From Dehalococcoidia bacterium (GTDB taxonomy: Bacteria; Chloroflexota; Dehalococcoidia; UBA6926), in assembly GCA_963666115.2 (NCBI GenBank), contig CAXXET010000006.1:384001-448000 (forward strand): a DNA stretch of 64,000 bases. The letters run 5' to 3'. Every line of letters begins with the position of its first letter. The stretch's first letter is position 1. This document shows positions 15,694-37,998 of the stretch, piece by piece. Below the pieces are notes generated by a model that ran no database searches, was not told the origin of the DNA, and saw nothing but the letters and a program-made list of their open reading frames with translations. The position numbers and the translations under genes were made by a program.

Positions 15694-16985
15694 CTAGTCG
15701 GGTGAAGTGGCCATCACCACGGTGCCCGCCGTGATCGGCAGCACCCCGTGCGTGACCGCGACATCCGCCTTCGTCGTGATCTGGCGGTCGCCCGCCCGGC
15801 CCTGCAGCTGCTCGAGCGGATCGGTGATGAACACGGTGCGCATGCGGCCCGTGCCCATGTTGCCGCCGCCGGAGTTCAGCGGGTTCGGGCCCTTGAGGCT
15901 GATGTCGCCGGCGTAGAAGTCGTGCGCTTTTCGCCGCGCTTGACGCCGCGCCAGCCGAACGCCTCGATGTAGTACTGCGTGAACACCGCGAACCCGTCGT
16001 ACGGCGCGAACACGTCGATGTCCTCGGGCTTCAGGCCGGAGCCGTTGTACGACCGCTGCGCCTGGATGTCCGTCCACTCCTCCGTGTCGTCGATGGTCTG
16101 CACCAGGCTGCGCGGCGTGAACTGGCTCTCCGTGTGGTCCAGGATGTAGACCGGCTTCTGCTTCATGTCTGCGGCCTTTGCAGCAGTTGTCATGATGTAC
16201 GCCGCCGCCGCCAGCACCGGCCGGTCGCAGTCGAAGATGCTCAGGTCGCGCGCGATCATGCGCCCGTTCAGGTAGTCCTCTTCGGTGAACTCGCCCGGCT
16301 CGTGCTGCGCGTAGTAGCTGTGCTCCCACAGCAGCCCGTTCTTCCGCTCCTGCACCACGAACGGCGCCATGCGGTCATGGTTCGTCCCGTACTTCTGGCA
16401 GTACTGGTTGAACGTGAAGCCCTGGCCGGAAAGGCCCCAGCCCCACGTGTTCGGCCACACGGCCATGCCGCGCGCCTCGTTGGACGGGTCCTGGTGATAC
16501 CGCCCGGGCAGGTTCCCGTTTGGGTACGTGACGACGACCGTCTCTGCGCGCCCGTCGGCGATGGCCTGCGCGGCCTGCCCGATGAGGTTCCACACGGGGT
16601 CGCCGTGGTTGTTGATGTACTTGAGATTCTTGAACCCCATCTGCTGTTGCAGCCACTGGCCGGTGACGTGCGTCAGGCCGTCTTCCGAGTGGTAGGGCGG
16701 ATCGAAGTACGGGCGCGGGCCCCACACGTCGCTCAGCGGCGCGCCGTTGCCCTGGCCGCCGGCGGAGCCGACGATGCCGTCCACGTCATCAACGGTGATG
16801 CCGGCGTCATCCAGCGCGTTCTGCACGGCGATCATCATGTATGCGCCGAGGGACTTCTCAAGCGTCTCCCCGTCCCAGCGGCGATCCGTCGGGGAATGCC
16901 CCCGCGCGACGAGCGCAGACTTGCCGCGGCCGTTCCAGATGCCGACTGGGTCGTGATTGCGCTCCCAATTGACTTCACGTGCCAT
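15694..16985 (-). CDS. Thiolase-fold (Ltp2/SCPx-like) protein, copy B; frameshift at about 15930
   Basis: Close paralog of 17690-18976. GAAAAGCG versus GAGGCG in the paralog means +2 A in a homopolymer. Confidence 0.85.
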
Positions 16986-17045
16986 CTTTGTCCATTCCTT
17001 TCTGACTGATGCGCTTCGCGTGTCTGCTTTGAAAGCTGCTCAGCT

Positions 17046-17477
17046 CTACTTGACGATCTTCCACTCCGGGATCATGCGCCCCGGCGCCGCCTCGACGAAC
17101 TGCACCTCGCAGGTCGCGCCGACGGGAATATCGGGCTCCTCGGCGAGATTGGTGCCGAAGTCGTCGATGAGGTTCGTATGGAAGTTGATCACCGGGTCCT
17201 CCTCGAGCGCCACGATGACGTTGAGGAACGGCTGCAGCGGATGCCACTGGACCAGGCGGGAGTCGTACGTGATGGAGTAGCCGACGATCTTCGCCCGGCC
17301 GCTCGTCTCCTCCCAGGTCATGTGGAAATCAAAGCCGCAATCCCGGCAGGTGGGCTCCGGCGGATACTGCCGCCGGTCGCAGATCGAACAATACTGGACG
17401 ATGAGCTTGCCTTCGTTGCATGCGTCCCAGAACGGCTGGCTCACCGGATCCGGAACAGGAACAATCGGTCGTGCCAT
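17046..17477 (-). CDS. Zn-ribbon/OB-fold (DUF35, ChsH2-like) protein, copy B
   Basis: PFWDAC..CxxC..YPP..CxxC..SGRAK. Confidence 0.9.
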   Translation of the reverse strand: MARPIVPVPDPVSQPFWDACNEGKLIVQYCSICDRRQYPPEPTCRDCGFDFHMTWEETSGRAKIVGYSITYDSRLVQWHPLQPFLNVIVALEEDPVINFHTNLIDDFGTNLAEEPDIPVGATCEVQFVEAAPGRMIPEWKIVK

Positions 17478-17633
17478 TATCTCCCCCCACTCCTGTACTG
17501 ACATTGGTATGCCGTGCGGAATGTAGCATGGCGGCAAAGCGCATGTCAACGGAACGCGAGGGCACGGGATAGACGCGCGCAAGTATCGGCAAGAGCGTAT
17601 TTAAAAACAGGTTTTTGACCATCCACCAAAAAC

Positions 17634-17665
17634 AAATAGCCCCCGCCAACCGGCGGGGGCTATTT
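17634..17665. terminator. Intrinsic terminator after thiolase copy A
   Basis: AAATAGCCCCCGCC-aacc-GGCGGGGGCTATTT, followed by a T-rich tract on the minus strand. Confidence 0.75.
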
Positions 17666-17689
17666 CTGCCTGCGAATTCGCTGTCTGAA

Positions 17690-18976
17690 CTAGCCGGGGT
17701 TCGTGCTCATCACCACCGTGCCAGCCGTGATCGGCAGCACGCCGTGGCTCACCGCGATCTCCGCCCGGCCCGTGATCTGCCGCTCGCCTGCGCGGTTCTG
17801 CAGCTGCTCCAGCGGGTCCGTGATGAACACGGTCCTCATGCGGCCCGTGCCCATGTTGCCGCCGCCGGAGTTCAGCGGGTTCGGCCCCTTCAGGCTGATG
17901 TCGCTCGCGTAGAAGTCGTGCGCCTCGCCGCGCTTGACGCCGCGCCAGCCCCACGCCTCGATGTAGTACTGCGTGAAGACGGCGAAGCCGTCATACGGCG
18001 CGAACACGTCGATGTCGTCCGCCGTGATGCCGGAGCCGTTGTAGGACCGCTGCGCCTGGATGTCCGTCCACTCCTCGGTGTCGTCGATCGTCTGCACCAG
18101 GCTGCGCGGGGAGAACAGGCTCTCCGTGTGATCCCAGATGTACACCGGCGTCTGCTTCATGTCCGCAGCCTTCTCAGCCGTCGTCATGACGTACGCCGCC
18201 GCCGCCAAAACCGGCCTGTCGCAGTCGAAGATGCTGAGGTCGCGCGCAATCATGCGCCCGTTCAGGTAGTCCTCTTCGGTGAACTCGCCCGGCTCGTGCT
18301 GCGCGTAGTAGCTGTGCTCCCACAGCAGCCCGTTCTTGCGCTCCTGCACGACGAACGGGGCCATGCGGTCATGGTTCGTGCCGTACTTCTGGCAGTACTG
18401 GTTGAAGGTGAACCCCTGGCCGGACAGACCCCAGCCCCAGGTGTTCGGCCACACGGCGCCGCCGCGCGCCTCATTGGAGGGGTCCTGGTGATACCGCCCG
18501 GGCAGGTTGCCGTTCGGGTACGTCACCACGACGGTCTCTGCGCGCCCGTCGGCAATGGCCTGCGCGGCCTGGCCGATCAGGTTCCAGATAGGGTCGCCGT
18601 GGTTGTTGATGTACCTGATGTTTGTGAAGCCCATCTGCTGCCGGAGCCACTGGCCGGTGACGTGCGTCAGGCCGTCCTCCGAGTGGTAGGGCGGGTCGAA
18701 GTACGGGCGCGGCCCCCAAACGTCGCTCAACGGAGCGCCGTTCGGCTGCCCGCCGGCGGAGCCGACGATGCCGTCGACGTCATCAACGGTGATGCCGGCG
18801 TCATCCAGCGCGTTCTGCACGGCGATCATCATGTACGCGCCGAGGGACTTGTCCAGCGACTCGCCGTCCCAGCGGCGGTCCGTTGGGGAGTGCCCGCGGG
18901 CGATCAGCGCCGACTTGCCGCGGCCGTTCCAGATGCCGACGGGGTCGTGATTGCGTTCCCAATTCTCACGTGCCAT
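17690..18976 (-). CDS. Thiolase-fold (Ltp2/SCPx-like) protein, copy A
   Basis: ALDDAGIT..DVDGI, DCDRP, PYDGF, NSGGGNM, QLQ.RAGERQ; adjacent to DUF35. Confidence 0.88.
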   Translation of the reverse strand: MARENWERNHDPVGIWNGRGKSALIARGHSPTDRRWDGESLDKSLGAYMMIAVQNALDDAGITVDDVDGIVGSAGGQPNGAPLSDVWGPRPYFDPPYHSEDGLTHVTGQWLRQQMGFTNIRYINNHGDPIWNLIGQAAQAIADGRAETVVVTYPNGNLPGRYHQDPSNEARGGAVWPNTWGWGLSGQGFTFNQYCQKYGTNHDRMAPFVVQERKNGLLWEHSYYAQHEPGEFTEEDYLNGRMIARDLSIFDCDRPVLAAAAYVMTTAEKAADMKQTPVYIWDHTESLFSPRSLVQTIDDTEEWTDIQAQRSYNGSGITADDIDVFAPYDGFAVFTQYYIEAWGWRGVKRGEAHDFYASDISLKGPNPLNSGGGNMGTGRMRTVFITDPLEQLQNRAGERQITGRAEIAVSHGVLPITAGTVVMSTNPG

Positions 18977-19013
18977 CTACGTGTGTCCTTTCCTGTTGGC
19001 CTGTGTGCCGCGC

Positions 19014-19445
19014 CTACTTGACGATCTTCCACTCCGGGATCATGCGCCCCGGCGCCGCCTCAACGAACTGCACCTCGCAGGTCGCGCCGACCGGAATGTC
19101 GGGCTCCTCCGAGAGGTTCGTGCCGAAGTCGTCGATGAGGTTCGTGTGGAAGTTGATCACCGGGTCCTCCTCAAGCGCCACGATGACGTTGAGGAACGGC
19201 TGCAGCGGATGCCACTGAACCAGGCGGGAGTCGTACGTGATGGAGTAGCCGACGATCTTCGCCCGGCCGCTGGTCTCCTCCCAGGTCATGTGGAAATCAA
19301 AGCCGCAATCGCGACAGGTGGGCTCCGGCGGATACTGCCGTCGGTCACAGATCGCGCAGTACTGAACGATGAGCTTGCCTTCGTTGCATGCGTCCCAGAA
19401 CGGCTGGCTCACCGGATCCGGAACGGGAACAATCGGTCGTGCCAT
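19014..19445 (-). CDS. Zn-ribbon/OB-fold (DUF35) protein, copy A
   Basis: Two CxxC pairs; near-identical protein to copy B. Confidence 0.9.
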   Translation of the reverse strand: MARPIVPVPDPVSQPFWDACNEGKLIVQYCAICDRRQYPPEPTCRDCGFDFHMTWEETSGRAKIVGYSITYDSRLVQWHPLQPFLNVIVALEEDPVINFHTNLIDDFGTNLSEEPDIPVGATCEVQFVEAAPGRMIPEWKIVK

Positions 19446-21629: not shown

Positions 21630-22850
21630 GGAGACCTTTGCATAACTCTCTCACTCAAGCCAAAATTGGGGTGAGCGCGGATGGAGAGAGAGGAGGGTGA
21701 GCGATGCATCGTCAGATGGGGCAGCCGTCACTGGCGGAGACGTTGTTGCCGGAGAAGCTCGGCAGGAATACGCGCCTGGAGCGCATCGGCGCAGAGATCG
21801 ATTGGGATCGATTCGCCACGTTGGTGGATGACATCTATTCGGCGTCGGAGGGTCGCCCCAGCTACCCGCCGCTGACGATGGTGAAGGTCCTCCTGTTGCA
21901 GCAGTGGTACAACGCCTCGGACCCCCAGATGGAGGAGGCGCTGACGGACCGCATCTCGTTCCGCCGCTTCGTGGGGCTGGGACTTGAGGATGACGCGCCG
22001 GATCACTCGACGATCAGCCGTTTCCGCACGGAGCTGGGGCGGCGCGGTTTGGCGGAGACGCTCTTCCAGGAGTTGGGCGCGCAGCTGGACAAGCGGGGAT
22101 TGCTCGTCAAGTCGGGGACATTGATGGACGCCACGCTGGTGGAGGCGCAGGTCAAACGCCCTCCGATGAGCGCGGGGCCTGGCGCGCGGAGCGAGACGGA
22201 CCCGGACGCGGGCTGGAGCCGCACCGGCCGCGGGTCACGAACGCACTTCGGCTACAAGGCGCACGCCGGGGTGGACGAGGGGACGGGCATCGTGCGCCAG
22301 GCGGAATTCACATCGGCCGTGGTGTATGAGAGCGAGGTGGCGGACGAATTGATCAGCGGGGATGAGCGAGCGGTGTACGGCGACCGCGCCTACGAATCGA
22401 AAGCGCGGCGACGGCGGCTGAAGGAGATGGGCATCAAGGACAGGATCATGCATCGGGCGAACAAGCATCAGCGGGTGCTGCCGCCGCGACTCCAATTGCG
22501 GAATGACCTGATTGCGCCGCGCCGCTCCCCGGTCGAGAAGGTCTTTGGGACGCTCAAACGGAGCTACGGCTACAGTCGTGTGCGCTACCGGGGCTTGCGA
22601 CGCAACAGGGTGGAGATGTACCTGAAGCTGATGGCCTACAACCTCAGGAAGATGATTCACCTCGTCCCCGCCCCGGCCTAAGCGGGCACGACCCTACAAT
22701 CCGAGAGCCGGATACCGCCAGACCACTGAAATCGCGCTCATCTAGCCGACCAGACAGCCGGTCAAGCACCGTCGATTCTCGACAGAGCGCACGCCTTCTC
22801 GCCACCTGCGTCCCCAAAACAGACAAGGCCGCAGTTGCGCAAAGGTCTCC
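21630..22850 (+). mobile_element. IS5-family insertion sequence with terminal inverted repeats and target duplication
   Basis: Left end GGAGACCTTTGCATAACT, right end AGTTGCGCAAAGGTCTCC. GAAA duplicated at 21626-21629 and 22851-22854 (or CGAAAG if each end is 1 bp shorter). Confidence 0.92.
21704..22681 (+). CDS. IS5-family transposase
   Basis: GRPSYP, PDHSTISRFR, MDATLV, FGYKAH, GDRAY, RSPVEKVFG. Confidence 0.95.
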   Translation: MHRQMGQPSLAETLLPEKLGRNTRLERIGAEIDWDRFATLVDDIYSASEGRPSYPPLTMVKVLLLQQWYNASDPQMEEALTDRISFRRFVGLGLEDDAPDHSTISRFRTELGRRGLAETLFQELGAQLDKRGLLVKSGTLMDATLVEAQVKRPPMSAGPGARSETDPDAGWSRTGRGSRTHFGYKAHAGVDEGTGIVRQAEFTSAVVYESEVADELISGDERAVYGDRAYESKARRRRLKEMGIKDRIMHRANKHQRVLPPRLQLRNDLIAPRRSPVEKVFGTLKRSYGYSRVRYRGLRRNRVEMYLKLMAYNLRKMIHLVPAPA

Positions 22851-25042: not shown

Positions 25043-27088
25043 GTGAAAAGCGGCGTAGGGGTCAGGGCGGGAGAAACACTGATGGGTTACGGTCACGCAT
25101 CATCTGTTGACGAATTCTTGCGGACTGACGACGACAAACTAATCGGGAAGCTGGCTTCGCGCGTTGCTGACATTGGGATTCCTGATCAAAGCAGCGCGCA
25201 AATCGAAGCCTGGCGGGCCGAGATTCAGTTGCTCAAGAAACAGCTGAAGGGTTCGAAGTTCAAGCGCTGGTCCATCGTTCTGGAGTATGAGATACCCCGT
25301 CGGTCTCGCAGACCGGACGTAATTCTCCTGTCCCCGGAAGCCATCTTTGTTGTGGAGTTCAAGATGGGTGCTCAGGCATACGATGCGATGTCTCGCTGGC
25401 AAGCTAATTCCTATGCCCGCGACCTCAGGGACTTCCACGCAGAATCCCACCGGCGCAGGATCGTGCCAATCCTATGCGCAACTGACGCCCAGGGAGGGTC
25501 TGCACCCAAGTCCTACCCTTTTCGTTCGGAAGCTGAAGTTGCTGATCTCGTCCGAACCAACGGATCAGGCCTCGGCTCATGGTTGCTAAAGTGCGACCAA
25601 CATCGCTATTCCGATTCCCCCGCTGGTGCAATAGCTCGGGAACAATGGCTGGAGTCTGAATATCGGCCGACCCCGACAATTATTGAAGCCGCTTCTCGCC
25701 TCTACGAGGGGCATGGAGTACGCGAGATCTCGCATCGATACGCGCATAACCTCGACGAAACTACGGAAATGCTGCTGGGAGAAATCAAGGAGGCTCGCAA
25801 GCGAAAGCGCCGGGTGATCTGTTTTGTCACGGGTGTCCCGGGGGCCGGGAAAACGTTGACAGGGCTCAATGTCGTGCACAGCCCCGGCCCGCGGCGAGGA
25901 AAACGTTTGGGGGCGATTTTCCTTTCTGGCAACGGCCCCTTGGTAAGGATCATTCAAGAGGCATTAGTCCTCAGCGAAGGCAATGGAGGCCGCAAGAAAG
26001 GTGAGGCCCGGCGTGAGGCCACCACGTTTATTCAGAACGTCCATAATTTCTTGGGCTACCACTTCGAGCGGCCGGGAGAGCGTCCACACGAGAATGTCGT
26101 GGTGTTCGACGAGGCTCAAAGAGCCTGGGATCAAAACCAGATGCAGCGCAAGCAAGGCAAAGATGCCTCTGAAGCGACCCTCTTGCTGGACGTGATGGAG
26201 AGATTACCTGATTGGGCGGTAGTCATCGCCTTGGTGGGCGGCGGACAAGAGATATTCAATGGAGAGGCGGGATTGAGCGAGTGGGGCAACGCCTTGGAGA
26301 ATCGCTCAGCCTCTTGGCGGGTGGTCGCCTCTCCGGAGGTGCTCATCGGCGGGGAGAGTGTCGCTGGCAAGAAGCTGTTTGAAGGCGCCATCCCCAAAAA
26401 CGTCACATACCATCAAGAAGACCTGGCGCACTTGGACGTTGTGGTCAGAAATCACCGAGCACAGCGCTGGGCCGAATGGGTAAATGCGCTGCTCTCATCC
26501 CAATATGACTCCGCTCAAGTGCTTTTTCCGGACGGCGATGAATTTCCCTGTGTTGTCACGCGTGACTTGGAGAAGGCACGGGCTTGGCTGCGGAAGTACC
26601 GTTCTATTGATGAAGAGGAAAGATCTGGGCTGGTGGCAACCTCGAAGGACCATCGCCTAAGGGCTTACGGCATTGAGCGATCTAGTTCACTGCTCACGAA
26701 CTTTCCTTTCGAGAAATGGTTTTTGAGTCCCAGCACTGACGTCCGCTCCAGCTTTCAGCTGGAGGTCGCGGCATCTGAATTCGAATGTCAGGGGCTTGAG
26801 CTCGACTGGGTTGGGCTCTGTTGGGGTGGCGACCTCACACCATCGGAAGGTTCCGCAGGCTGAGAGTATCAGAAATTCCGCGGCGACAAGTGGCAACAAG
26901 TAAGGAAGGAGTCCGAACAGGAATACACGGTGAACAGGTATCGCGTGCTACTGACTCGTGCTCGCAAGGGCCTAGTTATCTGGGTTCCGAAGGGTGATCC
27001 CAATGATCCTACGCGCGAACCTGAGCGGTACGATCGAGTATACGATGCGCTCCGTGTGGCAGGAGTGCCCCTGCTTGAGGAAGAGTAG
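25043..27088 (+). pseudogene. DUF2075/Schlafen-group-3-like helicase with N-terminal nuclease-like domain; internal TGA at 26861
   Basis: PDVIL..VEFK, Walker A GVPGAGKT, FDEAQRAW, QGLELD. Frame continues after TGA with FRGDKW..YRVLLTRAR to TAG at 27088. Confidence 0.8.
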
Positions 27089-27097
27089 GCCCCCAGC

Positions 27098-27128
27098 AAA
27101 AAGCCCCCAGCAAACGCCGGGGGCTTTT
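27098..27128. terminator. Bidirectional intrinsic terminator
   Basis: AAAAAGCCCCC...GGGGGCTTTT between convergent genes. Confidence 0.8.
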
Positions 27129-27144: not shown

Positions 27145-28311
27145 CTACGACGGTATCTCCGTCGCAAGCACAAGCGACGACATGTCGCTTATGTATCCCC
27201 GTCAAGTGTTCACGAACGCCACGTCGTGCTTCGGAACCTGGTGATTCTCCGCCCGCCCCATGAGTTGCCGCACGGCCTCCACAACCTGCGTCGTGCCGGC
27301 CGTGGACTGCCCGTTGGATAGCTGCCCGCCGCCCGTATTCACGGGGAAGTCGCCCTTCCACGTCGTGTCATGCTCCGCGTAGAACGGCCCGGACTCGCCC
27401 TTCGGGAAGAACCCGGAATCCTCCAGCGTGACCATCACCGTGATCGTGTAGCAGTCATAAATCTGGGCCATGTCCATGTCGTGCGGCCCAAGCCCCGCCA
27501 TGCGAAACGCGTCCCTGGCCGACACGACCGCAGGCGACGTGGTGATGCGGTCAACCCAGTCCACGCCGTGCTCGGCGCGGAGATTGTGGTGAGCCGCCCC
27601 AAGCAGGTACACGGGCGGGTTGCGCAGCATCCTGGCCCTCTCTGGCGTGGTGACGATGGTTGCCGCCGCGCCCTGGGCGGGCATAACACACTCCAACAAG
27701 TGCAGAGGATCGGCCACAAGGCGTGAGTTCAAAATATCTTCCTCGTTGGCGGGTTGGCCGTTGAAGAAGGCGTTTTCGTTGCCCTGCGCGTTGAACCGCT
27801 GGTCCGCCGCCACGCGCGCCCGCTGAAAGTCCGTCGTTCCGTATTCCCACGTATGGCGCCGCGCAATCTGCGCGTACCAGCCGTTCGCCGCGATGACCGG
27901 CCCGTACGGCTCGATGAACTGGGGGTCAACGTGGTCGGTATTCGGCGCGTACATGCCCGGAATCTCTGAGACCGGCCCCGCGCCGTTGATGCAGAGAACC
28001 GTGTCCGCGTAGCCGGCGTGGATGGCGGCTGCCGCGACGGAGATGAACGTAGCGGCGTTCTCGTTGAGGGCGGTCGCGAAGTTCGGCTGAACGCCGATGT
28101 ACTCGGCGAAGTCATACGCGAAGCCGAGGCTCGGCAGGCCGAACGGCGGCTCGGCGATGATGCCGTTGATGTCTTCCTTGCGGATTCCCGCGTCCACGAT
28201 GGCCTTTGCCGTCGCCTCCGCGTACATCCCCATGAAATGGCGGCCGGCATATGAGCGGCGATGCTGTAGCTCGCTAAACCCAACGATGGCAGCCTTGCCC
28301 CGAATACTCAT
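27145..28311 (-). CDS. Thiolase-fold protein with in-frame UGA at 27204-27202 (candidate selenoprotein)
   Basis: Thiolase motifs YDCY, NTGGGQLS, EAVRQL. AFVNT-TGA-RGYISDMSSLVLATEIPS-TAG; hairpin follows the UGA. Confidence 0.8.
27169..27193 (-). promoter_or_regulatory. Putative SECIS hairpin
   Basis: CATAAGCGAC-ATGTC-GTCGCTTGTG, a 10-bp stem starting 8 nt after the UGA. Confidence 0.5.
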
Positions 28312-28409
28312 CTCGCTTCTCCTAAGCCGCGCCCCGCGTTTCGCGCGCGAAGCGCGCCCTCAACCGACGTATCCGCTAAAGCGTATAGTGCGCTCCTCGT
28401 CCGCCCCTG

Positions 28410-33462: not shown

Positions 33463-34383
33463 ATGTCGGAGTCGGATTCCTTGGCAGAACGTTCAACGGC
33501 GGGCGCCCTTATGCGTGCCGGTGGCTTGGCCGCGAATGCTTCAGTCGTAGGCGTCGCAGGCGTCAGCCAGTTGATATCAGGCATTGGAATCGCCTACAAG
33601 CCCCTTTTCCAAGAAGTCGATCGGATGACGGCGAGCATGGGCATTGTCAACAGACTACTGGCGAACTCCTTCTTGAACTGGGGTGTGGTAAACGTAATGC
33701 GTGCATTCGACCAGCAATGGGCGAAGCAACAACGCGACTGGAATCGTCAAGCCAATCTCATGGCGCTCAGCACGAGAACCATCGCCACCGAGATGAATAT
33801 GGCTGTAAACGCTCTGGCAAACTCTGCTTCGCTACTCAGTGCAATGCCAAAGGCTCACGCCGCCTTGCCACGTGTTGATACCGTGAGCATCATGCGGCCT
33901 GTGATCACACGGAGTAGCAGATCATCCTGGTCCGACGCAGTATCCGAGGAAGATGATCCGCTGACATATTCTGACGTTAGCTTGGACGCAACTCTGCTGA
34001 ATACGCTGGAGCAGTCACATTATCACGTGTCCACAAGGGAGTTCCGTGAGTCCTTTCGAGATCTGCACAGAGAACCTTACCCCGACCTTACCGGTGCAAT
34101 ATCGCATGCCAATGCAGGATTTCTTTCCGTTGCGAGGGCGATTGATGGCAACAGCGGAGCCAATCCACGTGAAATCGTGGCACGTCATCGTGATCTGTTT
34201 CCGAAACCCCTAGACGAGGCAGTCCTGAAGCACTGGGGGTTCTCTTCTCAATATGGCCGCAAGGTAAGCGAGGGCAAAATCGCTGAGTATCATCAGGCTG
34301 AGGCGGCAGTTTACGGTATCGCACTAATCACGCTGTCGCTGGTTCGTGGAGCCCGAAAAGCTGGGCTGATAACCCACCCATGA
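33463..34383 (+). CDS. Hypothetical protein with Abi-like (AbiJ-related) C-terminal domain
   Basis: DL.REP.PDLTGAI.HA..PKPLD.AV.K.WGFSS..GRK..EG; visibly lower GC; ATGA overlap with the methyltransferase. Confidence 0.5.
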   Translation: MSESDSLAERSTAGALMRAGGLAANASVVGVAGVSQLISGIGIAYKPLFQEVDRMTASMGIVNRLLANSFLNWGVVNVMRAFDQQWAKQQRDWNRQANLMALSTRTIATEMNMAVNALANSASLLSAMPKAHAALPRVDTVSIMRPVITRSSRSSWSDAVSEEDDPLTYSDVSLDATLLNTLEQSHYHVSTREFRESFRDLHREPYPDLTGAISHANAGFLSVARAIDGNSGANPREIVARHRDLFPKPLDEAVLKHWGFSSQYGRKVSEGKIAEYHQAEAAVYGIALITLSLVRGARKAGLITHP

Positions 34384-36032
34384 CAACACCAACCGATTGG
34401 CGCAACAAACTCCATTTCGGAGACAACCTCCCCATCATGCGGGAGCACATCCCCGATGAAAGCGTTGACCTCATCTATCTTGACCCCCCCTTCAACTCCA
34501 ACGCGACGTACAACGTTCTCTTCCGCGAGCACGACAGCAGCGAATCCGCTGCCCAAATCCAGGCATTCGACGACACCTGGCACTGGAGCACGGAGGCCGA
34601 ATGGGCATACCAGCAGGTCGTCACGAGCGGCCCCAAGCGACTCGCGGACATGCTCCAGGCCATGCGAACATTCCTCGGCCAGAACGACATGATGGCCTAC
34701 CTCACCATGATGGCCCCGCGCATGGTGGAGTTGCACCGCGTCCTCAAGCCGACGGGCAGCATCTACCTCCACTGCGACCCCACCGCCAGCCACTACCTCA
34801 AGTTGCTCATGGACGCGGTTTTCAGCAACGCGAATTTCCGGAACGAGATCGTGTGGCGACGGACTTCTGCAAAGGGCTTAGCGTTCACGAGGTATCCCCG
34901 GAACCACGACGTACTGCTCCACTACTCCAAGAGCGAGGAAGTTATTTGGAATCGCCCGTACCGTCCCCATAATGCCGAATATGTAGCGAAAGCCTACAGG
35001 CACATAGAGCCCGAAACAGGACGGCGATACCGACTGGACAACTTGGCGAACCCGAATACCAACAGACCAAATCTAACTTATGAATTCCTCGGTGTAACCA
35101 GAGTTTGGCGCTGGACCAAAGAGAGGATGGAGGCAGCCTACCGCGACGGACTGATTGTTCAAACCAGACCAGGTGGTGTGCCGAGCCTCAAGAGGTATCT
35201 CGACGAAATGGAAGGGAGCGCTGTCGACACGATCTGGGAAGACATTCTGCCCGTACAGTCCCACAGCAATGAACGCCTCGGCTATCCCACCCAAAAGCCC
35301 GAGGCCCTGCTTGAGCGCATCATCAATGCCTCCAGCAACGAGGGTGATGTCGTGCTTGACCCCTTCTGCGGCTGCGGCACGGCCATCGCCGTCGCGGAGC
35401 GGCTCAACCGCAAATGGATCGGCATCGACGTTACTCACCTCGCCATTTCCCTGATGAAGAGCCGCCTGCGCGACTCGTTCGGCGATGACCTGTCCGACTA
35501 TGAGGTCGTCGGCTCGCCCGCGGACACTGAAAGCGCCCGCGCCCTCTCGCTTGAGGGCGGCAACACCGGCCGCTACCAGTTCGAATACTGGGCGCTTGGC
35601 CTGGTAGAGGCGCGTCCTGCGAATGACCGTCGCAAGGGCGCAGACTCCGGCATCGACGGCTATATCAACTTCTTCGACGACAACTCCGGCAAGGCCAAGA
35701 CCGTCATCGTGCAGGTCAAGAGCGGGCAGGTTGGCCGCAACGTCATCGCCACCCTCAAGGGCGACATGGAGCGTGAGAATGCGGAAATGGGGCTGCTCAT
35801 CACCCTTGAGCCGCCCACCAGGCCAATGATCGACGAGGCCACTGCCGCAGGGTTTTACGTGCCGGAGGCATTCCCGGACAGGCAATTCCCGCGCGTCCAG
35901 ATCGCCACGATTGAGGACATCCTGAACGGCAACGGCCCCGCCATCCCCCAGCTCGGCCTCTCCCAGTCCCCCACCTTCCGCCGCGCCCCCCGTCAACGCC
36001 GCGCCCAACCCCGCCCCCAGCGAATGGTGTAG
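34380..36032 (+). CDS. Beta-class N6/N4 DNA methyltransferase fused to a Mrr-like endonuclease domain
   Basis: YLDPPF precedes YPTQKP and DPFCGCGT; C-terminal DSGIDG..VQVKSG. Confidence 0.9.
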   Translation: MTTPTDWRNKLHFGDNLPIMREHIPDESVDLIYLDPPFNSNATYNVLFREHDSSESAAQIQAFDDTWHWSTEAEWAYQQVVTSGPKRLADMLQAMRTFLGQNDMMAYLTMMAPRMVELHRVLKPTGSIYLHCDPTASHYLKLLMDAVFSNANFRNEIVWRRTSAKGLAFTRYPRNHDVLLHYSKSEEVIWNRPYRPHNAEYVAKAYRHIEPETGRRYRLDNLANPNTNRPNLTYEFLGVTRVWRWTKERMEAAYRDGLIVQTRPGGVPSLKRYLDEMEGSAVDTIWEDILPVQSHSNERLGYPTQKPEALLERIINASSNEGDVVLDPFCGCGTAIAVAERLNRKWIGIDVTHLAISLMKSRLRDSFGDDLSDYEVVGSPADTESARALSLEGGNTGRYQFEYWALGLVEARPANDRRKGADSGIDGYINFFDDNSGKAKTVIVQVKSGQVGRNVIATLKGDMERENAEMGLLITLEPPTRPMIDEATAAGFYVPEAFPDRQFPRVQIATIEDILNGNGPAIPQLGLSQSPTFRRAPRQRRAQPRPQRMV

Positions 36033-36954: not shown

Positions 36955-37998
36955 ATGTCAACATCGGAACAGGTCAGACTCACGAGCCTGTCCCACTGCG
37001 CCGGTTGAGCGGCCAAACTCGGCCCCGCCGAGCTTGCGCAGGTCCTGCGCAATCTGCCGCCAATCAGCGACCCCAATCTGCTGGTCGGAATCTCGACTGG
37101 TGACGATGCCGCCGTCTATCGCCTCACCGACGACATCGCGCTCATCCAGACCATCGATTTCTTCCCGCCCGTCGTCGATGACCCATACGACTTCGGCGCG
37201 ATTGCCGCCGCCAACGCGCTCAGCGATGTCTACGCGATGGGCGGCCACCCCATTATCGCCCTCAACGTTGCCGCGTTCCCCGACGCGCTCGATAAGGACA
37301 TCCTTGGCCGCATCCTTAAAGGAGGCGCAGACAAGGCAGTCGAGGCGGGCGTGCTCATCGCCGGCGGACACACCATCGAAGACCCTGAGCCCAAGTACGG
37401 CCTCTCCGTGACCGGCATCGTGCAGCCCGGCCACCAGGTCGCCAACGTTGGCGCGCAGCCCGGCGACGCCCTGGTGTTGACAAAGCCGCTCGGCTCCGGC
37501 GTGTTGACGACGGCGCACAAGAACGGCGCGCTCGATGATGCAACCCTCGCCGAGGTCGTTGACGTCATGTCCCAGCTCAACCGCGGCGCCTCCGAGGCGA
37601 TGATCGAGGTCGGAGTAAACGCCTGCACGGACATAACGGGGTTCGGACTGCTCGGACACCTTAAGGGAATGCTGGACGGCAGCGGTGTTGGCGCGACACT
37701 GTCTCTGTCGGACGTCCCGACGATTCCCGCTGCGTGGGAGATGATCGAAAGAGGCTTTATACCCGGCGGAACGGGGCGTAACCAGGTCTACATTGAGAAT
37801 TTTGTCACAGCACATCCGGAGGTGAGTGAGGCGGGCAAAACCAATCTGATGGACGCGCAGACGTCGGGGGGTCTGCTCATTTCAGTCCCCCAAAGCAAGC
37901 GAGACGCCCTCATCGCCGCCCTCCGCGCCCGCAACACAAAAACAGCCGCAATAATCGGCCAAATCACCGAAAATAAAGAACTAATTATCCAACCATAG
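36955..37998 (+). CDS. selD: Selenide, water dikinase; Sec-containing (UGA codon 18 at 37006)
   Basis: MSTSEQVRLTSLSHCAG-U-AAKLGP in frame with DDAAVY, TIDFFPP, GGHT, TKPLG, TDITGFG, DAQTSGG. Confidence 0.95.

Follow-up and report, generated by a model that had tools for sequence, protein, structure and literature searches.

The subject of this analysis is a gene on the reverse strand of a 64,000-nucleotide stretch of DNA from a marine Dehalococcoidia bacterium (GenBank assembly GCA_963666115.2, contig CAXXET010000006.1, positions 384,001 to 448,000; hereafter the window), whose reading frame is interrupted by an in-frame UGA at codon 370. We are fairly confident that it is best explained as the gene of a thiolase-superfamily selenoprotein that resembles the Sal and SLP proteins, is decoded with selenocysteine (Sec, U) and carries a putatively catalytic Sec370. 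The UGA is most likely read as Sec by means of a Sec insertion sequence (SECIS) lying within the coding region, and there is strong support for a Sal/SLP-like thiolase-fold enzyme of the SCP2-thiolase-related branch, with the Tyr/Cys dyad kept and the nucleophile gone. A preliminary description of the window had proposed a Sec-dependent thiolase-superfamily enzyme. The superfamily and the use of Sec are both supported here, while the nearest characterised relatives prove to be retro-aldolases (Sal and Ltp2).

Reading frame and sequence features

The features of the gene, and that of the selD gene in the same window, are as follows.

27145..28311, reverse strand: full reading frame of the predicted Sal-like thiolase-fold selenoprotein, 388 codons including UGA370, then TAG
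28318..28323, reverse strand: Shine-Dalgarno-like AGGAGA, 6 nt 5′ of the ATG (28311-28309)
27451..27459, reverse strand: codons Y285-D286-C287 of the YDCY motif, corresponding to the CtSal Tyr302/Cys304 dyad; C287 is TGA in 25 of 118 genes
27202..27204, reverse strand: UGA codon 370, predicted to be read as Sec on the strength of the homologue column and the clade; the U of U-R-G, which the alignments place at the thiolase CxG cysteine position
27148..27201, reverse strand: 18 post-UGA codons, RGYISDMSSLVLATEIPS, supplying the final strand of the thiolase C-terminal domain (beta-strand 376-383 in the model)
27169..27193, reverse strand: SECIS-like hairpin 1, 10-bp stem, loop AUGUC, beginning 8 nt past the UGA
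27146..27166, reverse strand: hairpin 2, 8-bp stem, loop AGAUA, overlapping the TAG stop
27100..27127, reverse strand: terminator-like 12-bp GC-rich hairpin and U-run just 3′ of the TAG (z = -4.57)
36976..37899, forward strand: match to selD (386.6 bits, 1 TGA), with an in-frame UGA at U17 (CAGU motif)

Direct reading of the frame gives 369 sense codons ending VAFVNT upstream of TGA370, and the read-through protein ends in the C-terminal peptide GYISDMSSLVLATEIPS, closed by TAG at 27147-27145. The interruption at 27204-27202 and the continuation to that TAG had been seen in the preliminary description and are confirmed, with 18 conserved codons between the two. The Pfam model Thiolase_C_1 (PF22691) matches with 144.6 bits up to residue 383, which is profile position 143 of 144, so that the post-UGA extension appears to be the ordinary end of the domain. 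In NCBIfam (release 20) only generic ‘acetyl-CoA acetyltransferase / lipid-transfer protein’ models were hit, every one below its cut-off, and this release has no specific model for the Sec-type Sal-like family. TGA370 is also covered by contigs of two further public runs (X1 and X2), each belonging to a different study, and no differences are listed at the codon. The differences listed against these contigs within 27265-27328 fall exclusively on third codon positions, which indicates purifying selection; in runs X2-X4, uncovered parts of the gene carry no information.

TGA codons at two columns among homologues

Near-full-length loci were collected by searches of the window's own genome, at the class level, at the phylum level and in one further search. 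After removal of identical proteins and of partial matches (query start >12 or query end <375), 118 distinct genes were aligned. Column 370 holds Asn in 53 genes, TGA in 49, Ser in 11, Thr in three and Gln in two. A second recoded site is present in paralogues at column 287, the catalytic cysteine of the YDCY motif, where Cys and Sec alternate (Cys 80, TGA 25, Ser 11, Ala 2). The joint states of columns 287 and 370 are (C,N) in 51 genes, (U,U) in 25, (C,U) in 24 and (S,S) in 11, the rarer combinations being (C,T) in three and (A,N) and (C,Q) in two each. Every U370 gene has Cys or Sec at 287 (49/49). The preliminary description had held that a TGA conserved among relatives, or alternating with Cys codons, would support recoding, and that a TGA confined to this genome, or an unconserved peptide beyond it, would speak against it. 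The same column is TGA in 49 of the 118 genes, all in one clade apart from locus L077, and change in the tail is mostly synonymous; the alternation with Cys is found at column 287 and does not occur at column 370.

The window's own genome contains three Sal-like paralogues with in-frame TGA (one, one and two codons; four Sec codons in all). Matches at E <= 1e-60 were obtained in 38 of 121 genomes of the class-level sample, and all internal stops reported in this search and in that of the own genome are TGA. Of the 401 genomes in the phylum-level sample, eight gave matches at E <= 1e-70, with TGA forms solely in the window's own genome. Sec-type genes belong to metagenome-assembled genomes (MAGs) of Dehalococcoidia, SAR202 or Chloroflexota, with the single exception of L066, which is labelled Actinomycetota. 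A ‘1 TGA’ reported for genome G086 (locus L023) was rejected as a case of recoding, the codon being the ordinary stop of that gene.

Database entries are affected at the same position. Among the best 120 matches in a collection of 5.8 billion proteins, 80 are called as ending exactly before column 370 (VNG in 70, VNT in nine and INT in one), 39 are full length (Asn 36, Ser 2 and Lys 1 at column 370) and one is unclassifiable. Gene callers currently cut Sec-type genes short at codon 370, and methods based on Cys/Sec alignment would miss this site, which would explain the truncation of the 80 entries. One database protein, P0007 (385 residues), has an N-terminal half near-identical to the window clade and a C-terminal half of the Asn type (YDC, NTHGG, VNGNGG); an assembly chimera, or natural recombination between Sec-type and Asn-type genes, could account for it. 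Sec-type genes nearly always end in TAG or TAA, TGA ends being limited to L014 and L017 (first gene), and they may avoid a UGA stop near the SECIS. Asn-type and other non-Sec homologues, those of other Dehalococcoidia included, often terminate in TGA.

Coding constraint beyond UGA370

The segment 3′ of the UGA evolves as coding sequence. Over the 15 codons downstream, the 10 distinct genes of the window clade show 14 synonymous codon variants against six amino-acid variants; over the 15 codons upstream, the same genes show 13 of each. In all 49 U370 genes the 16 post-UGA codons are free of in-frame stops, against means of 0.78 and 0.22 stops in the two alternative frames. The tail pattern GGxxSxMxxLVLGSE of Sec-type genes is kept across genes about 42-52% identical to the window protein, and it matches the GGxxSExxSLxLG of full-length Asn-type homologues. 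Taken together, these comparisons strongly support the translation of UGA370.

RNA structure downstream of the UGA codons

Folding reproduced the two hairpins after the UGA exactly as the preliminary description had drawn them. The 60 nt from the UGA have a minimum free energy (MFE) of -26.9 kcal/mol (z = -4.23), and none of 200 shuffles folds as well. The apical loop of hairpin 1 lies 22-26 nt from the U of the UGA. Hairpin 2 is kept in eight of nine distinct tail sequences of the window clade, the exception being L064; the same locus carries a compensatory change in the stem of hairpin 1 (C to U with G to A), both substitutions being synonymous. A terminator had likewise been placed just past the TAG, where direct folding finds a hairpin with a U-run that a consensus terminator scan did not flag.

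All 47 distinct post-UGA segments at site 370 fold as a hairpin that starts 8-15 nt past the UGA and has an apical loop of 3-7 nt at about 20-26 nt from it. The loop nearly always includes the G of AUG or GUU. Bacterial SECIS (bSECIS) elements are modelled with an apical loop about 16-37 nt from the UGA and a G in that loop; by these general figures, the per-sequence folds place a stem-loop of bSECIS type at UGA370. Stem sequences vary between subgroups, with the opposite arm changing to match. A helix named by ourselves (columns 15-21 with 27-33, plus a second helix) has 70.8% of its cells paired, against 32-46% in slid controls, and none of 500 shuffles attains the observed pairing or covariation score, a comparison that leans towards the structure so chosen. 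Within this helix, pair 20-28 is AU in 19 and UA in 12 sequences, and pair 21-27 is GC in 13 and CG in 12. The segment from +10 to +42 is more stable in Sec-type than in non-Sec genes at site 370 (median MFE -11.7, n = 39, against -7.3, n = 68; Mann–Whitney U test, p = 1.6e-8) and at site 287 (-9.4, n = 25, against -6.85, n = 92; p = 1.1e-5), with p values that overstate the effect because the rows are related. Site 287 has a hairpin of its own, with the loop CGUGU or CGUGA.

Selenocysteine machinery

The window's genome (100% complete, nine contigs) carries a tRNA-Sec scoring 68 bits (cut-off 47), which is the sole tRNA with a UCA anticodon, and the sole UGA-reading one, among 47. SelA (452 bits) and SelB (330 bits, over the cut-off) are found in it, and SelD is present. 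The selA, selB and selC genes whose presence the preliminary description wished to see confirmed are therefore all represented, as SelA, SelB and tRNA-Sec. Its account of a selD gene with a Sec codon and two tandem hairpins was accurate, and their spacing is similar to that in the thiolase-fold gene. In this selD (36958-37998, forward strand) the TGA is residue 17 of the translated stretch, in SHCAGU-AAK, and SelD is itself a selenoprotein. Five other genomes with Sec-type genes were tested: SelA was found in three, and the remaining two (G090 and G016) have SelB over the cut-off. SelA or SelB is thus present in all six tested genomes with recoded genes, the window's own included, and SelA in one of five genomes with only non-Sec forms.

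Fold and active site

The AlphaFold2 model (64 sequences) has a predicted local distance difference test score of 89.3 and a predicted template modelling (TM) score of 0.91. Its top match in the PDB is 9myr_A, the Sal-Shy(DUF35) aldolase of Comamonas testosteroni (CtSal; TM score 0.90, 39% identity, E = 9.3e-79), followed by 4u4e, a putative thiolase from Sphaerobacter, and 6ok1, the Ltp2-ChsH2(DUF35) aldolase. According to excerpts of the CtSal report, Tyr302 and Cys304 of YDCY are essential, and the variants C304A, C304S and C304H are dead (PMC12329534). The excerpts describe Cys304 as the proton donor to the acyl-coenzyme A (acyl-CoA) enolate, touching the alpha-carbon, with its thiolate stabilised by Gln347 and Gln352, an oxyanion hole made of the Gly391 backbone NH and Gln161, and Gly89 standing in for the thiolase nucleophile (PMC12329534).

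In the phmmer alignment to 9myr_A, in which the chain index equals the CtSal number plus 24 (verified on Tyr302, Cys304, Gln347 and Gln352), CtSal Tyr302, Cys304, Gln347, Gln352 and Gly391 align with Y285, C287, Q330, Q335 and G372 of the window protein, and Thr389 aligns with U370. The equivalents of Y285, Q330, Q335 and G372 are invariant in all 49 Sec-type genes, and 287 is Cys or Sec. The window protein accordingly has what marks the Sal/SLP proteins: a thiolase fold without a nucleophile Cys, together with YDC(Y/F), the two Gln and the Gly. The lack of Cys at the nucleophile position had been remarked on before and holds, residues 78-100 containing none. A structure-based alignment of MsTLP1, available in excerpt, equates the thiolase CXG (378-380, Cys378 being the general base) with NGG, and NEAF with YSCF (PMC3406046). 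The present family reads N-G-G or U-G-G (U-R-G in the window clade), plus YDCY. The earlier equation of U-R-G with the thiolase CxG is supported indirectly by the alignment of G372 with CtSal Gly391 and by the MsTLP1 correspondence, and these alignments support a location of Sec370 at the classical thiolase base position, two residues before the predicted oxyanion-hole Gly372.

Phylogeny of the two sites

A FastTree tree of the 118 genes, the sole tree method used, was built with both trait columns (287 and 370) removed. All U370 genes lie on one side of it (63 rows, support 97), where L077, on a long branch, stands apart from a clade of 51 rows (support 89) that takes in the rest. Three clade members show a secondary change to Asn370, namely L084 and the pair L003 and L085, the latter two also having Ala at 287. 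A Ser/Ser clade of 11 rows falls on the U370 side, where the fork joining it to the U370 clade and L077 is poorly resolved. The other side (55 rows) holds the Cys/Asn forms of Binatia, deltaproteobacterial, Syntrophomonadaceae, Dehalococcoidia and other MAGs, the Cys/Thr Sal genes of Comamonas, Pandoraea and a Pseudomonadales MAG, and two Cys/Gln genes. At least 10 changes are required at site 287 and at least six at site 370. From this sequence-based tree, the catalytic Cys287 is seen to toggle repeatedly between Cys and Sec, with Sec370 apparently old and seldom lost.

Proposed mechanism and alternative explanations

In the proposed mechanism, SelB and tRNA-Sec would decode UGA370 as selenocysteine, directed by the stem-loop that begins 8 nt past the UGA within the last 18 codons. 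The characterised members of the branch are DUF35-associated retro-aldolases acting on hydroxyacyl-CoA thioesters. By homology with Cys304 and Cys378, residues 287 and 370 would both face the acyl-CoA alpha-carbon, which would put them within a few Å of each other. The selenol or selenolate of Sec370 would then sit beside that carbon and Cys287, and the two residues could act as a chalcogen pair for proton transfer, possibly also for nucleophilic catalysis, in C-C cleavage or formation on a CoA thioester. Paralogues with Sec at 287 would have a Sec/Sec active site. Such a catalytic pair is favoured because the Sal set is kept, because the neighbours are CoA-ester genes and because Sec replaces a proven acid/base Cys at 287. 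A more specific proposal, advanced only tentatively, is a non-redox selenoenzyme family with Sec at the CxG base position, and often also in YDC, performing C-C chemistry on CoA thioesters. Under this proposal, a selenolate nucleophile might form an acyl-selenoester and so stand in for the lost N-terminal thiolase Cys. The family would occur widely among marine and subsurface Dehalococcoidia, its members being systematically mis-annotated as truncated ‘acetyl-CoA acetyltransferases’.

Several observations weigh against the interpretation of the gene as a Sec-decoded, Sal-like enzyme. Cys is absent at column 370 from all 118 genes and from the 39 full-length database proteins, which is unusual for a Sec site. 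RNAalifold returned no consensus structure for the 47 post-UGA segments, which is attributed to subgroups setting the hairpin in registers 4 nt apart; support for the SECIS consequently comes from per-sequence folds and the self-named structure. The covariation called for in the preliminary description is seen in pairs 20-28 and 21-27 and in the double change of L064, and not as an RNAalifold consensus. SelA was not found in G090 (95% complete), which has a two-TGA gene and in which SelB is present. In the active site of the window protein, the His344 position is Gly and the Gln161 position is Ala, with a 3-residue deletion in the nucleophile loop and a 2-residue deletion in the loop after GQS. 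Given these active-site differences and the lack of an adjacent DUF35 gene, Sal-type aldolase chemistry may not apply.

The main rival accepts Sec insertion and makes the protein a redox enzyme, in which Sec370 and Cys287 form a reversible selenenylsulfide (or a diselenide with Sec287) that either gates the active site as a switch or serves a reductive step on the acyl-CoA alpha-carbon. It is compatible with the mechanism above, and we regard it as rather unlikely. The two columns do pair as chalcogens, with (C,U) in 24, (U,U) in 25 and (S,S) in 11 genes against (C,N) in 51, and Cys or Sec stands at 287 in every U370 gene, but this co-variation is confounded by phylogeny. The inferred orientation of both positions towards the same substrate alpha-carbon would suit such a bond. 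The His344 position is Asp in 37 of the 49 Sec-type genes, Gly in 10 (the window clade) and His in two, and its replacement in 47 of 49 suggests an altered chemistry; yet the Sal catalytic set is wholly kept, and the CtSal Cys at the 287 position is a proton donor in the excerpted report, not a redox centre. Review abstracts describe most known selenoproteins as redox enzymes, whereas the neighbours that recur include neither thioredoxin-like nor reductase genes.

Read-through of UGA370 without Sec, by near-cognate insertion of Trp, Cys or Arg or under a reassigned code, is improbable. Nothing speaks for it directly, other than a column 370 without any Cys homologue. The only UGA-reading tRNA of the genome is tRNA-Sec, and TGA is a normal stop in this group, since non-Sec homologues, including those of other Dehalococcoidia, often end in it. 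The hairpins at SECIS distance and the restriction of recoded genes to genomes bearing SelA or SelB (6/6 tested) are equally at odds with this explanation.

A genuine stop at UGA370, with a 369-residue product and downstream conservation owed to an RNA structure such as a terminator or attenuator, is very improbable. The 80 database entries called as ending here and the strong structure of the downstream region are what would be expected from it. Such a product would lose the last beta-strand of the domain (residues 376-383, modelled), and the explanation sits poorly with the openness of the frame in 49 of 49 genes against the stops in the other two (0.78 and 0.22) and with a tail pattern kept at about 42-52% identity that matches full-length Asn-type homologues. 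The TGA at codon 287 of 25 genes, moreover, lies in the middle of the gene, where a stop could not be functional. A sequencing or assembly error at TGA370, or a pseudogene, to which the broken Schlafen-like helicase gene elsewhere in the window (26863-26930) might have pointed, is effectively refuted by the sharing of the TGA among 10 distinct window-clade genes of different assemblies and by the agreement of contigs from two further runs, with nearby differences all at third positions.

Genomic context

The gene is monocistronic and is flanked by the genes of a Na/Ca exchanger and a Schlafen-like helicase, with no DUF35 or hydratase gene adjoining it. A comparison of window-clade neighbourhoods found the upstream Na/Ca-exchanger gene as the only conserved neighbour, which gives no functional clue. 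In 10 of 10 loci tested outside the window clade, the next gene 3′ of the Sec-type gene is of the DUF35 type (OB_ChsH2_C plus zf-ChsH2), and a cluster of DUF35-type open reading frames (ORFs) covers 25 of 33 loci. Genes for CoA-transferase III, short-chain dehydrogenase (SDR) and acyl-CoA dehydrogenase are further recurrent neighbours. The window's own genome has five strong DUF35 genes, four of which adjoin the other four Sal-like genes. The fifth is an orphan on contig C7 (G000:C7:102442-102639, reverse strand; locus L141:6382-6723), between recQ and a zincin-like peptidase gene, and is a candidate partner of the window protein. Its ORF as called begins inside the zinc-ribbon domain (profile position 10); the frame ahead of it contains no ATG, GTG or TTG and meets a TGA about 37 codons upstream.

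A tandem array of Sal-like and DUF35 genes (G000:C6:336594-339918; loci L004/L003) lies about 45 kb upstream of the window. It comprises, in order, a two-TGA Sal-like gene (U287, U370), a DUF35 gene, a Sec-less paralogue and a second DUF35 gene. The Sec-less paralogue has Ala287 and Asn370 and keeps NTDGG. The pairing recurs in other genomes (L085, L096, L103 and L111), and the products of the array may assemble into a heteromer in which one subunit is active and the other inactive. Within the window, at about 15950-19300 (G000:C6:399951-403283), two weak thiolase-fold matches (30-31% identity) lie near two weak DUF35 matches and may form a thiolase / HMG-CoA-synthase / DUF35-type cluster.

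The neighbouring helicase (Schlafen-group-3-like, DUF2075-type; 25043-27088, forward strand) has an ORF that ends at 26863 and a separate 52-codon ORF at 26930-27088. The latter resembles the usual helicase C-terminus, and the gene seems to have been split by a frameshift or insertion. Further out lie a DDE transposase (DUF772 plus DDE_Tnp_1; 21704-22681, forward strand) and a DNA methylase that carries a fused Mrr-like endonuclease domain (34380-36032, forward strand), which suggest a mobile or defence-rich neighbourhood.

Comparison with known systems

No bacterial Sec-containing thiolase is among the literature matches listed for selenoprotein plus thiolase. The ‘selenium-containing thiolase’ of Clostridium kluyveri contains selenomethionine and is a different phenomenon. 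Nor was such a family described in the literature searched for selenocysteine or selenoproteomes with acetyl-CoA acetyltransferase, Chloroflexi or SAR202. In the family table of a 2026 review of prokaryotic selenoproteomes, available in part and indexed by Pfam and NCBIfam identifiers, no thiolase, aldolase, lipid, acetyltransferase, ketoacyl or SCP entry was found, and PF22691, PF02803 and PF00108 are absent (PMC13188914). BSepDB credits Dehalococcoidia MAGs with 46-49 selenoprotein genes, and its main text names no such family; its list of 111 families and its supplements lay outside the search, and the family could stand there under another name (PMC13326102). The earlier statement that this fold is not among described selenoproteins agrees with the literature searched, paper supplements and the BSepDB family list excepted.

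Should the interpretation hold, Sec at the catalytic-base position of a thiolase fold would extend the use of Sec to carbon-carbon bond chemistry, and the alternation of Sec370 with Asn instead of Cys makes it more unusual still. Selenoproteome counts and metabolic reconstructions of marine and subsurface Dehalococcoidia would be affected because the family is abundant there. The toggling between Cys and Sec at a Sal-type catalytic Cys also offers a ready-made experiment on selenium in acid/base catalysis.

CtSal (PDB 9myr) is a bile-acid (steroid side-chain) aldolase, solved in complex with the DUF35 protein Shy. Like the window protein it lacks a nucleophile Cys and has YDCY, the pair of Gln around the thiolate and the oxyanion-hole Gly, and a DUF35 gene follows paralogues of the window gene. 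They differ in Thr389 against Sec370, in His344 against Gly (Asp in most Sec-type genes) and in Gln161 against Ala. The Thr-type Sal genes occupy the opposite half of the tree, and the window gene has no adjoining DUF35 or hydratase gene. TcLtp2-ChsH2(DUF35) (6ok1) and TbSLP/SCP2-thiolase-like proteins similarly have a thiolase fold without thiolase chemistry and keep the catalytic Tyr of YD(H/C)F; none has Sec. Ltp2 differs in its use of Tyr294 and Tyr344, with His at the Cys287 position, the equivalent of Tyr344 in the window protein being Gln335.

Classical thiolases of the Zoogloea ramigera type are recognised by the fingerprints CxS, NEAF, GHP and CxG. They have the same fold, and Sec370 would occupy the position of their CxG cysteine, the general base Cys378 in the excerpted alignment. 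The window clade differs from them in having no CxS Cys in the nucleophile loop, YDCY in place of NEAF and NTGGG without the His of GHP. Thiolysis by way of an N-terminal acyl-Cys intermediate is impossible in the absence of these three elements.

Selenoproteins are overwhelmingly thiol-oxidoreductase-like. With other bacterial selenoproteins, such as the SelD of the window, the gene shares an in-frame UGA, a stem-loop that begins within about 10 nt of it, tandem hairpins, dependence on SelA/SelB/SelC/SelD and, at site 287, the alternation of Cys and Sec. It is set apart by a Sec at site 370 that alternates with Asn, Ser, Thr and Gln, never with Cys, and by a scaffold with the fold of CoA-thioester C-C lyases/transferases in place of a thiol-oxidoreductase. 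It probably represents a new selenoprotein family, a variant of both the known selenoproteins and the thiolase-like aldolases.

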